Shown here one piece after another: positions 38,932 through 64,000 of a stretch of 64,000 bases of DNA. The DNA comes from a virus. Position 1 is the first letter of the stretch. Each line of letters starts with the position of its first letter. A model generated the notes under the pieces. The model was given only the letters and a program-made list of their open reading frames with translations, was not told the origin of the DNA and made no database searches. The position numbers were made by a program, and so were the translations under genes. The DNA lies in IMG/VR virus record IMGVR_UViG_3300046370_000603; one strand, written 5' to 3'.

Positions 38932-41382
38932 ATGGAAATAAAAATTAAAAAAAGAAATGGCAGACTAGAAAACTTTCAAGTCGATAAAATTAATGCTAGC
39001 GCCGAGCGAGCCTGTGAAGGCATAACTGATGTATCCGCCAGCGAAATAGTCTTAGATGCTCAACTTCAACTTTTTGATAAGATAACAACCAAGGAAATAG
39101 ACCAAGCTCTTATTCTTTCAGCTAGAGAAAAAATTGAAAAAGAACCTAACTACTCTTTTGCAGCTGCTAGATTATTATTAAACAATCTATACAAAGAGGT
39201 ATTCAAAGAAGGTGTAGACTCTGACGCTTTTAGACTTCAATACAGAAAAAGCTTCATACAGGGCATCAAAAAAATGGTTAAAAATAATCTATTAAACCCT
39301 AAGCTTCTTGATTTTGATCTAAATAAACTTTCCGAAGCTTTGAGAATAAGGAGAGATTTAGATTTTAAATATCTAGGTATTCAAATATTAACTGATAGGT
39401 ATTTTATTAGATTGGATGAAAAATGCATGGAGGCTCCTCAATCTTTTTGGATGAGAGTTGCCATGGGCTTATCCATAAACGAAGATAATAAAGAAGAAAA
39501 AGCTATTGAATTCTATAATTTATTCAGTCAATTTTTATATACGCCATCAACCCCTACTCTTTTTAATAGTGGAACCACACATTCGCAACTCAGTTCTTGT
39601 TACCTTAATACTTTTGATGATAGTATAGATGGTATTTTTGATGGGGCTTGGCAAGAAGCTAGAAAATCAAAATATGCTGGAGGTCTAGGTCTTGACGTAA
39701 CTCCTTTTCGTTCCACAGGCTCTGGCATACAAGGAACTAATGGAATTTCTAGCGGTCTAGTCCCTTGGTTGAAAATTTACAACGATTTACTTATTGCTGT
39801 CAACCAAGGCGGAAAGCGCCCAGGTGCAGGATGCGCTTATTTAGAACCTTGGCATCTAGACTTTGAGGATTTTTTAAATCTTCGAAGGAATACTGGTGAC
39901 GATAGATTAAGATGCCACGACATGAACACAGCGTCCTGGCTTCCTGACGAGTTTATGCGAAGAGTTAAAAACGAAGATGTTTGGTATTTTTTTGACCCCA
40001 AAGATACTAAAGACGAGAACGAAAAAACTCTCCATGATTACTTTGGTAAAGATTTTGATAACCTTTATTGTAAATTATGTAATGACGCAGAGAATGGGCT
40101 AATTAAAAACTACAGAACCACACCTGCTAAAGATTTGTGGAAAAAAATGCTTAAAGTTTTATTTGAAACCTCACACCCGTGGAATACATTCAAAGATCCG
40201 TGCAACATCAGGTACACAAATCAACACGAAGGCACTGTTAAAAGCTCAAATCTTTGCACTGAAATAACACTACACACAAAATCGTCTAAATATGAAGAAG
40301 GAGAAAAAACTGAAATAGGTGAAACAGCCGTGTGTAATTTAGGTTCGATTAATCTACTCAATCATTTAGATCAAAAATCTACTCATGAAGGCACTGGGTT
40401 TTTTATTAACTATGATAAATTAAAATCTACAATACATACGGCTATTAGAATACTGGATAACGTCATAGATTTAAATTTTTACCCAACAAGAGAAGCTAAA
40501 AATTCTAATTTAAAACATCGCCCAATTGGATTAGGTATGATGGCTACTCACGATGTGATGCACAAGCTTAATATTAAGATTGATAGCAACGAAGCGATAA
40601 AGTTTAGTGATGAGATTTTTGAATTTTATTCTTGTAATGCCATATATGCTAGTTCTTTATTAGCCAAAGAAAGAGGCGCCTATGAGACATATGAAGGCTC
40701 TTTGTGGAGCTCTAATATTTTCCCAATAGACTCTTACAACAACTTAATGTCTTATAGAGAAAAAAAACACTCTAAAGAAAATTTAAAAGAATGGAGTGAA
40801 ACCAGGAAGCATGTATCTGAGTTTGGAATGAGAAATTCTAACGTTATGGCTATAGCCCCAACAGCAACTATTGGTTATATCAATGGGGTAGAGCAAAGTA
40901 TAGAGCCTAATTTTTCTGTTCTCTTTGTTTATGAAAATAAAAGTGGAAACTTTTATATCACCAATAGTCATTTTGTTGAAGATATGAAAAATTTAAACCT
41001 ATGGAATAGTGAAATAGCTACTTTTATAAAAAGTATCGACGGAGATTTGTCCTTATCTAGTGACCTTGTTCCTAAAGAATTAAAAGAAAAATATAAAACA
41101 GCTTTTGATCGAGATATGTTTAAACTAATTGAAGCTACCGCTGCTCGCCAAAAATGGGTAGATCAAGCGATTAGTTTTAATTTGTATAATAGTGGCACAT
41201 CATTAAAATACTTAAATGATATCTACATGGCTTGCTGGGAAGCTGGATTAAAAACTACTTATTACTTAAGGAACAGAGCTGCTAGCAAAGTTGAAAAATC
41301 AACTTCTTCTGAAGGTGAACAACCTAAATCTTGCAGCATAGAAGCTATGAAAAAAGGAGAGTCTTGTGAAAGCTGTCAATAA
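38932..41382 (+). CDS. nrdA: Class I ribonucleoside-diphosphate reductase alpha subunit with ATP cone
   Basis: IKKRNG ATP cone, TPTLFNSG..QLSSCY, SSNLCTEI, VCNLGS, AIAPTAT, GLKTTYYLR, C-terminal CESCQ. Confidence 0.97.
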   Translation: MEIKIKKRNGRLENFQVDKINASAERACEGITDVSASEIVLDAQLQLFDKITTKEIDQALILSAREKIEKEPNYSFAAARLLLNNLYKEVFKEGVDSDAFRLQYRKSFIQGIKKMVKNNLLNPKLLDFDLNKLSEALRIRRDLDFKYLGIQILTDRYFIRLDEKCMEAPQSFWMRVAMGLSINEDNKEEKAIEFYNLFSQFLYTPSTPTLFNSGTTHSQLSSCYLNTFDDSIDGIFDGAWQEARKSKYAGGLGLDVTPFRSTGSGIQGTNGISSGLVPWLKIYNDLLIAVNQGGKRPGAGCAYLEPWHLDFEDFLNLRRNTGDDRLRCHDMNTASWLPDEFMRRVKNEDVWYFFDPKDTKDENEKTLHDYFGKDFDNLYCKLCNDAENGLIKNYRTTPAKDLWKKMLKVLFETSHPWNTFKDPCNIRYTNQHEGTVKSSNLCTEITLHTKSSKYEEGEKTEIGETAVCNLGSINLLNHLDQKSTHEGTGFFINYDKLKSTIHTAIRILDNVIDLNFYPTREAKNSNLKHRPIGLGMMATHDVMHKLNIKIDSNEAIKFSDEIFEFYSCNAIYASSLLAKERGAYETYEGSLWSSNIFPIDSYNNLMSYREKKHSKENLKEWSETRKHVSEFGMRNSNVMAIAPTATIGYINGVEQSIEPNFSVLFVYENKSGNFYITNSHFVEDMKNLNLWNSEIATFIKSIDGDLSLSSDLVPKELKEKYKTAFDRDMFKLIEATAARQKWVDQAISFNLYNSGTSLKYLNDIYMACWEAGLKTTYYLRNRAASKVEKSTSSEGEQPKSCSIEAMKKGESCESCQ

Positions 41383-62504: not shown

Positions 62505-64000
62505 ATGGCTAGATTAGATCAAAACGCAGGAAGTTCTACTTTTTATTATGGTTGGTATGGTACTTGCCCAGAGACTGAGTTAAATGATTGTTCGAGTTTT
62601 CCTTTGGTCAAACTAGGAAGCCCTAACACTCATATTCATGACAATATTCTTTATATAACTATTCCATTTGATGACAATTTATCTGAAAGAAGTTATTCTG
62701 GAGCAGCAACATCCAACCAAATTCCCTTTGGACTACAATCTCTAGAGTGCGGTAAACCTTACAAGATTGTACTAAAACCAGGAACAGGCTTCTTGGATAT
62801 TCCAGAGCTTGAATTTGCTAACACTAGCACCACTGATGTTTATCGTTTATCCAGAAATTGTTGCGCTGGAACACCCACAAGTACGCCAACAGCTGGAACC
62901 CCAACTTCTTCGCCAACGTTTAGCGCCACAACTTCACCAACAACTACAAATTCTCCAACAGCTAGTGCTACAACTAGCTCAACAATTAGCGCTACAACTT
63001 CACCAACAAATTCACCAACAACCACAAATTCTCCAACAACTAGTTCTACAACCAGCCCAACAATTAGTCCGACAACTAGCCCAACAACCAGCCCAACAAC
63101 CAGCGCAACAACTAGTGCTACAATTTCCCCAACAACTAGTGCTACAACTAGCCCAACAATTAGTGCGACAACTAGCCCAACAACCAGCCCAACAACCAGC
63201 GCAACAACTAGTGCCACAATTTCCCCAACAACTAGTTCTACAACTAGCCCAACAATTAGTCCGACAACTAGCCCAACAACCAGCTCAACAACTAGTGCGA
63301 CAACTAGTGCCACAATTTCCCCAACAACTAGTTCTACAACTAGCCCAACAATTAGTCCGACAACTAGCCCAACAACCAGCTCAACAACTAGTGCGACAAC
63401 TAGCCCAACAATTAGTCCGACAACTAGCCCAACAACCAGCCCAACAACCAGCGCAACAACTAGTGCCACAATTTCCCCAACAACTAGTTCTACAACTAGC
63501 CCAACAATTAGTCCGACAACTAGCCCAACAACCAGCTCAACAACTAGTGCGACAACTAGTGCCACAATTTCCCCAACAACTAGTTCTACAACTAGCCCAA
63601 CAATTAGTGCGACAACTAGCCCAACAACCAGCCCAACAACTAGTGCGACAACTAGTGCCACAATTTCCCCAACAACTAGCTCTACAACTAGCCCAACAAT
63701 TAGTGCTACAACTAGCCCAACAACCAGCCCAACAACCAGCGCAACAACTAGTGCCACAATTTCCCCAACAACTAGTTCTACAACTAGCCCAACAATTAGT
63801 CCGACAACTAGCCCAACAACCAGCCCAACAACCAGCGCAACAACTAGTGCCACAACCAGCCCAACAACCAGCGCAACAACCAGCCCAACAACCAGCGCAA
63901 CAACTAGTGCCACAATTTCCCCAACAACTAGTTCTACAACTAGCCCAACAATTAGTCCGACAACTAGCCCAACAACCAGCCCAACAACCAGCGCAACAAC
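62505..64000 (+). CDS. Second mucin-like protein (3'-truncated by window end; absent from the ORF track)
   Basis: ATG 62505: MARLDQNAGSSTFYYGWYGTC...LECGKPY...SRNCCAG, then uninterrupted TTSP/TISP/TTSA repeats to the window end. Confidence 0.85.
   Translation, partial: MARLDQNAGSSTFYYGWYGTCPETELNDCSSFPLVKLGSPNTHIHDNILYITIPFDDNLSERSYSGAATSNQIPFGLQSLECGKPYKIVLKPGTGFLDIPELEFANTSTTDVYRLSRNCCAGTPTSTPTAGTPTSSPTFSATTSPTTTNSPTASATTSSTISATTSPTNSPTTTNSPTTSSTTSPTISPTTSPTTSPTTSATTSATISPTTSATTSPTISATTSPTTSPTTSATTSATISPTTSSTTSPTISPTTSPTTSSTTSATTSATISPTTSSTTSPTISPTTSPTTSSTTSATTSPTISPTTSPTTSPTTSATTSATISPTTSSTTSPTISPTTSPTTSSTTSATTSATISPTTSSTTSPTISATTSPTTSPTTSATTSATISPTTSSTTSPTISATTSPTTSPTTSATTSATISPTTSSTTSPTISPTTSPTTSPTTSATTSATTSPTTSATTSPTTSATTSATISPTTSSTTSPTISPTTSPTTSPTTSAT
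62871..64000 (+). repeat. Hierarchical 12/96/444-bp tandem repeat
   Basis: Marker CAATTTCCCC at 63121, 63217, 63313, 63469, 63565, 63661, 63757 and 63913. Confidence 0.93.

Follow-up and report, generated by a model that had tools for sequence, protein, structure and literature searches.

The window analysed here, a stretch of 64,000 nucleotides from IMG/VR virus record IMGVR_UViG_3300046370_000603, carries a large island of carbohydrate-active genes (41366-60068) that leads directly into two genes for mucin-like proteins rich in serine, threonine and proline (S/T/P). The phage probably sugar-coats its own particle, as giant viruses do, because this soluble enzyme island adjoins proteins with Ser/Thr-rich stalks. 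Gene content and arrangement suggest, with about an even chance of being right, a phage-encoded, cytoplasmic glycan decoration of the phage's own surface proteins, which would be driven by a core of a GT-A-fold glycosyltransferase, a short-chain dehydrogenase/reductase (SDR) and an Fcl-like reductase and be diversified by cassettes. Twenty-five forward-strand open reading frames (ORFs) fill the island, with intergenic gaps of -29 to +83 nt on the ORF map, and the island then runs into 60117-62501 (794 aa) and 62505 to >64000 (498 aa, open at the window end). Related IMG/VR and other records are labelled G001-G013 or with L-numbers; G002, G009, G010 and G012 are complete, and seven long relatives were compared over their full length. 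Families were assigned by Pfam/NCBIfam profile matches, with PHROGs for the leftovers, giving the following island genes.

41366..42415 (+): 349-aa protein, first island gene after the ribonucleotide reductase (RNR) gene; no Pfam/PHROG match
42387..43421 (+): 344-aa protein; no Pfam/PHROG match
43422..44165 (+): doubtful sulfotransferase-like protein; RTGST loop only; Sulfotransfer_3 E 0.17
44249..44911 (+): sulfotransferase; PF03567 E 1e-17; PKxxGTS loop
44918..45841 (+): GT17-like glycosyltransferase; PF04724 E 1.8e-11, 44 bits versus a cut-off of 26
45834..46490 (+): sulfotransferase; PF03567 E 3e-22
46514..47074 (+): sulfotransferase; PF03567 E 3e-16
47083..47760 (+): sulfotransferase; PF03567 E 1e-7
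47826..48572 (+): GT32-type (Caps_synth / DXD) glycosyltransferase; PF05704 E 3e-29
48592..49236 (+): GT32-type glycosyltransferase, tandem paralogue; PF05704 E 1.6e-32
49233..49856 (+): DUF1796 "papain-like" protein; PF08795 E 3e-10
49840..50199 (+): 119-aa ORF, always preceding the GT-A gene; homologues in G001 (51%) and G002/G006 (26%)
50196..51056 (+): core GT-A (GT2-like) glycosyltransferase; weak GT2 profile match; invariant D-Q-D motif
51074..52030 (+): dTDP-glucose 4,6-dehydratase (RmlB); TIGR01181, 422 bits, cut-off 365
52017..52856 (+): nucleoside diphosphate (NDP)-sugar dehydrogenase, 279 aa, without the C-terminal domain; Pfam/NCBIfam
52872..53555 (+): FkbM-family methyltransferase; TIGR01444 E 4e-21
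53562..54293 (+): 243-aa protein; no match in Pfam/PHROG/PDB searches
54328..54789 (+): cytidylyl/adenylyl-transferase-like enzyme (RfaE domain II / TagD-like); PF01467 E 1.5e-13
54761..55411 (+): DegT-like protein, 216 aa; PF01041 E 9e-13; aminotransferase activity uncertain
55408..55992 (+): NeuD/PglD/VioB-type sugar N-acetyltransferase; TIGR03570 E 1.5e-45
56013..56618 (+): class I methyltransferase (CmcI / rhamnosyl O-methyltransferase-like, weak); PF13578 and PF04989, both under cut-off
56615..57310 (+): 231-aa protein; no Pfam/PHROG match
57320..58168 (+): RmlD-like 4-reductase; PF04321 E 6e-20; 79% identical to G012
58199..59131 (+): core SDR epimerase/dehydratase; PF01370 E 5e-32; 91% identical to G002/G006
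59124..60068 (+): core Fcl-like 3,5-epimerase/4-reductase (6-deoxyhexose synthase type); NF047922 E 3.5e-66, under equivalog cut-off

An earlier note on this DNA had described a run of 24 consecutive intact genes; the packed, co-directional run is confirmed, but it counts 25 ORFs. Its passage into the two S/T/P-repeat genes (ORF map, tract scan), the six nucleotide-sugar enzymes (profile matches) and the two methyltransferases (FkbM-type 52872 and weak CmcI-like 56013) were likewise recovered. The transferase counts shrink: about seven to eight glycosyltransferase-like genes had been named, and support was obtained for four only, with 41366, 42387, 49840, 53562 and 56615 lacking a family match, while the five island sulfotransferases become four firm ones and a doubtful one (43422), the fifth firm copy lying among the tail genes. 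The acetyltransferase (55408) stands, but the supposed aminotransferase (54761) does so only in part, having ~60% of the normal length and aligning mainly to positions 19-98 of the 360 in the PF01041 profile. The DUF1796 protein comes in addition to the sugar, transferase, methyl and sulfate genes.

None of the 25 island ORFs reaches a Kyte-Doolittle value of 1.6 over 19 residues by a heuristic used in place of a dedicated predictor, in agreement with the claim that the island has no membrane component or transmembrane (TM) segment; neither mucin-like protein has a hydrophobic N-terminus by heuristic, in line with the claimed absence of signal peptides. No flippase, polymerase, initiating phosphoglycosyl transferase or ligase was found in the island or in the four complete relatives. 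By the hydropathy heuristic, no protein with at least four TM segments occurs in the window or in G002, G009, G010 and G012, except for the family of membrane protein w35690, whose architecture (3 TM, coiled coil, 1 TM) is unlike Wzx/Wzy. The larger islands of G012 and G008 are likewise without membrane proteins. Because islands and complete relatives lack membrane proteins, a self-sufficient surface-polysaccharide pathway is argued against.

The candidate acceptors are four proteins with S/T/P tracts, scored as at least 70% S+T+P over 40 aa.

4556..6340 (+): neck (head-to-tail adaptor-like) protein; N-domain aa 1-195, stalk aa ~195-343, Cys-rich distal domain
23183..26794 (+): tail-tip protein, first gene after the tape measure; PT linkers, S/T/P stalk aa 1084-1155; role from position only
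60117..62501 (+): mucin-like protein 1; 127-aa N-domain, S/T/P aa 128-564, Cys-rich middle and C-terminal domains
62505..64000 (+): mucin-like protein 2 (incomplete); 117-aa N-domain, S/T/P aa 118 to window end

The two mucin-like tracts span 437 and >380 residues, consist of 79-82% S+T+P and are encoded by repeats of 78-270 nt. The similar stalks that had been noticed on a neck and a tail-tip protein are present as tracts (S/T/P aa 205-325 of 4556 in the tract scan), the assignment of these two proteins to neck and tail tip being based on where the genes lie and on a weak structural match. The heptapeptide SPTTSAT is common to 23183, 60117 and 62505 (3, 10 and 10 copies, respectively) and occurs nowhere else. 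Homologues of the 4556 N-domain lie two genes after the capsid gene in >60 relatives as stalk-less proteins of 151-255 aa, and stalked neck forms of 594-985 aa with a Cys-rich end domain are found only in the window's clade, defined by a capsid identity of 79-85% (L001, L002, L003, L005, L008, L019). An AlphaFold2 (AF2) model of the neck N-domain (predicted local distance difference test, pLDDT, 77) gave no Foldseek match; its only near-full-length VIA matches were 9d83_B, 9d80_B and 9bgm_b (Z 8.3-8.8, 115-124 residues aligned), which are neck/head-to-tail chains of phages B2, Moo19 and DEV; these matches are suggestive, although helical folds reach such values by chance. G012 has a paralogue of the tail-tube-like protein (8325) with a T/S tract at its C-terminus, and this case, together with the neck and tail-tip proteins, suggests repeated addition of stalks to virion proteins within this phage family. 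S/T-rich tails are lacking from the window's own capsid and tail-tube-like proteins. For the mucin N-domain, a homologue search found none, and the C-terminal 230 aa of mucin-like protein 1 gave 16 matches among 1.8 billion representatives, several of them probably on linker sequence; because these searches were nearly empty, the end domains are regarded as orphans.

Two further features of the stalk genes were observed. In three stalk proteins, a Cys-Cys dipeptide marks the point where the stalk meets the globular domain, as FDCCHEGGE (window 5520-5530; 4556 aa ~323), NCCNGFGD (61820-61835; 60117 aa ~571) and RNCCAGTPT (62855-62865; 62505 aa ~118), and G002 homologues have the dipeptide too; it may represent either a disulfide staple of the structure or a junction left by recombination. 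In addition, long repeat-shadow ORFs lie opposite the stalk repeats, at 60713-61765 (-) and 62840-64000 (-) in the window and at 145693-158149 (+) in G002. Those of G002 imitate proteins with 26-35 "TM segments", a trap for automatic annotation.

Comparison with relatives separates a core from accessory blocks. G002 (206 kb) is the closest complete relative and syntenic with the window. Downstream (3') of its RNR gene it carries only a 228-aa ORF, the 119-aa ORF, the GT-A gene (37% identical), the SDR gene (91%) and the Fcl-like gene (63%), after which come homologues of both mucin-like proteins and then further stalk proteins; a fragment, G006, has the same arrangement. The closest relative, G001, is arranged differently and has the same 119-aa/GT-A pair. 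By this comparison, the window consists of a G002-type core plus two inserted blocks (41366-49236 and 51074-58168), and the conserved core, as read from gene order, is the 119-aa ORF, the GT-A enzyme, the SDR and the Fcl-like reductase adjoining the stalk genes. The G002 homologue of mucin-like protein 1 (170162-172831) has a (Thr-x)n tract, and that of mucin-like protein 2 (944 aa) has a 727-residue (Thr-x)n tract plus a C-terminal domain. G002 stalks are thus built of (Thr-x)n with Glu/Gln rather than S/T/P, about half of their residues being Thr; across both stalk types Thr makes up 41-50% of tract residues and is the constant feature. The RmlB, cytidylyltransferase and RmlD-like genes are 79-93% identical to those of G012 (87082-91214) and L146 (85-91% for RmlB), versus 58% between the capsids of the window and G012, suggesting that the blocks are mobile and were recently exchanged between phages as cassettes.

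The distribution of these genes bears on which enzymes belong with the stalks. DNA encoding (Thr-x)n was found in 7 of 35 related records, all from the window's clade plus G012, and protein scans detected S/T tracts in the window, G002 and G012 and none in G008, G009, G010, G011 and G013. Among records at least 60% complete plus the window, the GT-A family (present in G001, G002, G006, G008 and G012) occurs in 5 of 5 stalk-bearing and 1 of 7 stalk-less records, and PF03567 sulfotransferases occur in 4 of 5 and 6 of 7. On these counts, the proposed co-occurrence of island and stalk genes is seen for the GT-A family but not for the sulfotransferases. The GT-A/stalk association is statistically weak, since only two to three independent lineages contribute to it. 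Whichever explanation applies, it is useful to know that the GT-A/SDR/Fcl core, and not the sulfotransferases, travels with the stalks.

A model of the core enzyme 50196 built from 37 homologues (AF2, pLDDT 94) has a GT-A fold. Its best Foldseek match is the chondroitin polymerase K4CP (E 1e-9), followed by TarP/TarS, with heparosan synthase also among the best neighbours; the family profile reached only a GT2 DxD segment. The tandem enzymes gave weak PDB sequence matches to Och1 and toxin-type protein glycosyltransferases (47826) and an under-cut-off match to TcdA_TcdB (48592, E 8e-5). PDB sequence searches with 50196, 44918, 54761, 43422 and 53562 were empty or meaningless.

From these genes, the following course can be proposed. 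Late in infection, unusual activated sugars would be made from host precursors: RmlB, the DegT-like protein and the NeuD-type acetyltransferase could form a route to a 4-acetamido-4,6-dideoxyhexose, and the RmlD-like reductase and the SDR/Fcl-like pair could yield 6-deoxyhexoses, perhaps along with a uronic acid. Soluble GT-A/GT32/GT17-type transferases would then build O-linked glycans on the Ser/Thr-rich stalks of the neck adaptor, the tail tip and the two large fibre-like proteins, and the methyltransferases and sulfotransferases, the latter using host 3'-phosphoadenosine 5'-phosphosulfate (PAPS), would finish them. The blocks 41366-49236 and 51074-58168 may serve as swappable accessory cassettes that diversify the glycan. 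The phage itself encodes parts of the sugar pathways: RmlB, whose score exceeds the equivalog cut-off, along with reductases, an acetyltransferase and methyltransferases. An RmlA-type glucose-1-phosphate nucleotidylyltransferase was not found, and the first sugar-activation step is therefore probably host-dependent.

The sulfation genes include one outside the island.

9985..10692 (+): sulfotransferase inside the tail-gene module; PF03567 E 4e-14; PHROG 3347

With it, five window ORFs score 33-80 bits for PF03567 (cut-off 22), and all five of these firm sulfotransferases have a PKxxGTS/GNS loop, which binds the 5'-phosphosulfate of PAPS, near residue 14-20. The island ORF 43422 was rejected as a firm member; a hidden Markov model (HMM) built from the window's own sulfotransferases missed it, and it has only the P-loop-like RTGST motif. 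Orthologues of the tail-module enzyme occur at the same position only in the stalk-bearing relatives L001, L002 and L008. Neither adenosine 5'-phosphosulfate (APS) kinase nor ATP sulfurylase families were detected among the Pfam-scanned window ORFs (the tail ORFs 12581-32705 lay outside the scan). A ~270-aa fusion of an APS-kinase-like P-loop domain with a cytidylyltransferase-like domain occurs in G002 (98165-98974) and G012 (58906-59742) and is confined to these two large stalk-bearing relatives; it is possibly a compact PAPS-related or NadR-like enzyme. The sulfotransferase cassette of G002 also contains a Fringe-like GT31 gene (PF02434, E 1.5e-20; G002 81921-82622). Characterised Fringe-like GT31 members extend sugars already on protein.

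Self-decoration of the particle is supported by the tight, co-directional and TM-free gene set, the stalks on structural-module proteins and the conserved adjacency of core and stalks. Several observations weigh against it. The glycan itself is a prediction from gene content, and no transferase could be tied to a polypeptide acceptor. An initiating polypeptide transferase of GT27/GT60 type was not found in the island ORFs by Pfam or fold, and in the fold search with 50196 the mucin-type GalNAc-T3 appeared only at rank 41, behind polysaccharide and teichoic-acid enzymes. GT60 (PF11397) was absent from 18 related records, but it was also unmatched in every control genome, and a divergent initiating transferase could lie among the five unassigned island ORFs. 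The island adjoins nucleotide-metabolism genes outside the structural module; both large mucin-like proteins have orphan end domains, their virion membership being putative; and S/T/P tracts can be plain unglycosylated linkers. The independent lineages behind the GT-A/stalk link are the window's clade and G012, with G008 as an exception; in this record (82% complete) an island of ~40 genes adjoins RNR, but no stalk occurs. Sulfotransferases show no association with stalks, and sulfate ending up on the stalks is the weakest link of the proposal.

The earlier note's central idea, that the phage builds sulfated, methylated, deoxy-sugar O-glycans on its own stalks, accordingly divides: adjacency, the GT-A link and the absence of flippase and polymerase speak for it, but the sulfate link and the initiator do not. 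The full version, a sulfated, methylated, deoxy/amino-sugar O-glycan coat on neck, tail-tip and extra-fibre stalks from exchanged cassettes, is possible but doubtful. Such a coat might imitate sulfated polysaccharides of the aquatic surroundings and aid sticking to particles and hosts or hiding from enzymes. Mimicry of sulfated polysaccharides that the host binds, as also suggested, found no support, and a scan of bacterial genomes with RmlB gave no host clue, its sole close match (91%) being a phage-like contig inside a metagenome-assembled genome (MAG).

The enzymes might instead remodel host O-antigen, capsule, exopolysaccharide (EPS) or glycoproteins through the host's undecaprenyl-phosphate, flippase and polymerase, with the stalk genes as mere neighbours; the purpose would likely be to block superinfection or to prevent progeny from sticking to debris. 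We consider this unlikely, although it stays alive because stalk-less relatives carry islands, including sulfotransferases and the ~40-gene island. It also fits the membership of 47826 and 48592 in a Pfam capsule-synthesis family, the best fold matches of the core GT-A to polysaccharide and teichoic-acid enzymes and the location of the island beside RNR and replication genes. Soluble glycosyltransferases are usual in O-antigen and capsule assembly, the membrane steps being supplied by the host; because most of these transferases are soluble, the absence of TM segments does not exclude such a role and is a weaker argument than the earlier note had made it. Against remodelling of host glycans stand the missing initiating phosphoglycosyl transferase, flippase, polymerase and ligase, the conserved core/stalk adjacency with a GT-A family that tracks the stalks, the sulfotransferase embedded in the tail operon, and the fact that the closest overall gene-set parallel decorates viral fibrils. 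Alternatively, the particle could be decorated on capsid, tail tube or other proteins, or through bound free polysaccharide, and the S/T/P and (Thr-x)n tracts would serve as spacers keeping the Cys-rich binding domains at a distance from the particle. Stalk-less relatives retain sulfotransferases, and one retains a full island; stalk composition has changed wholly between close relatives (S/T/P versus T-E/Q), as expected of a spacer; and Freeman et al. 2023 (Cell Host Microbe 31:1216, as cited in PMC12619734) reportedly found that mycobacteriophages (Che8 and others) O-glycosylate Ser/Thr-rich C-terminal extensions of their own capsid and tail-tube proteins. The conserved Thr content of both tract types, the lack of S/T-rich tails on the window's capsid and tail-tube-like proteins and the position of the stalk genes directly after the core enzymes make acceptors of this kind rather improbable.

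A use of the sugars in hypermodification of phage DNA would agree with the nearby deoxynucleoside monophosphate (dNMP) kinase gene (37854-38414), and phage glycosyltransferases are said to decorate DNA with diverse glycans (Pyle et al. 2024, as cited in PMC12619734). No ThyA-family hydroxymethylase was found in G002, G012, G008, G009 and G010, which counts against DNA glycosylation of the T4 type, and five sulfotransferases, O-methyltransferases and an amino-sugar pathway suit a complex glycan rather than a modified base; we know of no sulfated DNA modification. On these grounds DNA hypermodification has only a very slight chance of being the explanation.

If the stalks are the acceptors, the system would resemble the mycobacteriophage one in combining phage glycosyltransferases, the phage's own structural proteins, the cytoplasm and Ser/Thr-rich extensions. 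In the mycobacteriophages, one or two transferases in the structural operon reportedly place glycans on short C-terminal tails of the capsid and tail tube, whereas the island of the window, with 25 genes, brings sugar pathways of its own together with methylation and sulfation, and the stalks span 90-470 residues. With bacterial O-antigen and capsule clusters the island shares RmlB, RmlD-like, DegT, NeuD/PglD-type and UGDH-like enzymes, GT2/GT32 and FkbM, but it has no initiating transferase, flippase, polymerase, chain-length regulator or ABC exporter, and it adjoins stalk proteins in a lytic-looking large phage. Dense Ser/Thr/Pro tandem repeats and the PF03567 family recall eukaryotic mucin-type O-glycosylation with its Golgi sulfotransferases, although no GT27/GT60 initiator was detected and the process would be cytoplasmic rather than secretory.

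The closest parallel is provided by the fibril clusters of Megavirinae (Mimivirus, Moumouvirus, Tupanvirus), which are virus-encoded, cytoplasmic and independent of the host glycosylation machinery (PMC10117803). Several glycosyltransferases are combined there with methyltransferases and with a 4,6-dehydratase, reductases, an aminotransferase and an N-acetyltransferase, and the window has genes of the same classes, its aminotransferase candidate being the short DegT-like protein. Besides a sulfotransferase, an APS kinase and two papain-like proteins, the Moumouvirus australiensis cluster has 4,6-dehydratases, a reductase, glycosyltransferases, an aminotransferase and an acetyltransferase; its authors describe sulfation as predicted but untested (PMC10117803). 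The window likewise has sulfotransferases and a DUF1796 papain-like protein, whose nearest ESM Atlas clusters are mostly from Nucleocytoviricota ("papain-like" giant-virus clusters), but it has four to five sulfotransferases versus one and no APS kinase among its scanned ORFs. The RmlB, DegT-like and NeuD-type trio parallels the Vio4NAc route of Mimivirus, although the DegT-like protein of the window is short (PMC10117803). Unlike Megavirinae, the window belongs to a tailed phage of a bacterial host, and its candidate acceptors are mucin-like S/T stalks instead of giant-virus fibril proteins.

No sulfated glycan on a phage turned up in the literature searches, in keeping with the earlier note, which knew of no such coat. 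Should the stalks prove to be glycosylated and sulfated, the building of complex surface glycans by a virus itself would extend from giant viruses to tailed phages, a sulfated glycoprotein coat would have been shown on a phage for the first time, and sulfate esters would be added to virion chemistry. How phages adsorb, how stable their particles are and how they stick in aquatic systems would have to be modelled differently, and the abundance of sulfotransferases in large phages ("sulfur-metabolism auxiliary genes" in viromes) would be explained. The island would also offer a compact, all-soluble toolkit for protein glycoengineering.

Further details were recorded for individual island genes. 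The homologue of 41366 adjoins RNR in G001 (40% identical), and its ESM Atlas neighbours are viral, one cluster being automatically named "putative glycosyltransferase", which is a lead only. The short form of the NDP-sugar dehydrogenase (276-286 aa) is also found in G002, G012 and G008, adjoining an SDR upstream of RNR, suggesting a family trait and neither a local truncation nor a pseudogene. The nucleotidyltransferase 54328 matches TIGR02199 and TIGR01518, both under cut-off. A putative partner gene lies outside the island.

33046..33864 (-): PfkB-family sugar kinase; PF00294 E 2e-9; membership in the system inferred

This kinase is a possible partner of 54328, and the two together resemble a split HldE of the ADP-heptose pathway (RfaE-domain-II-like 54328-54789, +). 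A homologue is 60% identical in G001, and none was found in the seven relatives compared in full.

The window has a G+C content of ~33% and the following further landmarks.

2760-3959: putative major capsid protein, with 325 relatives in IMG/VR
35690-36808: membrane protein w35690, 3 TM + long coiled coil + 1 TM, among replication genes, conserved
37854-38414: dNMP kinase

The capsid gene is followed downstream (3') by a gene for a tape measure of 3,533 aa and by tail genes, and then by genes for a single-stranded DNA-binding protein (SSB), the dNMP kinase and the class I RNR. The G012 homologue of w35690 (61831-63174) terminates in a (Thr-Ser)n tail. Head, neck and tail genes had no match in PHROGs, and the major capsid protein and the first 12.5 kb had none among GenBank phages; because both collections fail to recognise the head genes, the lineage is considered uncharacterised. 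The "moraphage" lineage (PMC12619734) was rejected as a match, being contractile-tailed and a different lineage.

The motif GTGTA lies at 4043, 12552, 38907, 46491 and 60088, each time 9-24 nt ahead of a start codon; the genes concerned are the one following the capsid gene and those for the tape measure, RNR, a sulfotransferase and mucin-like protein 1. Its spacing is irregular, and as a late promoter before 60117, 12581 and 4063 it was rejected as too irregular; a sigma-70/terminator scan of 44-64 kb gave signal at shuffle level. Exact-DNA and close-protein scans of IMG/VR with the mucin N-domain and the Fcl-like gene returned nothing. L146 (G+C 30.5%) was deposited within a Thermodesulfobacteriota MAG, yet it looks like mis-binned phage DNA. 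Finally, two island proteins have copies on a 158-kb contig, at 98% and 86% identity.

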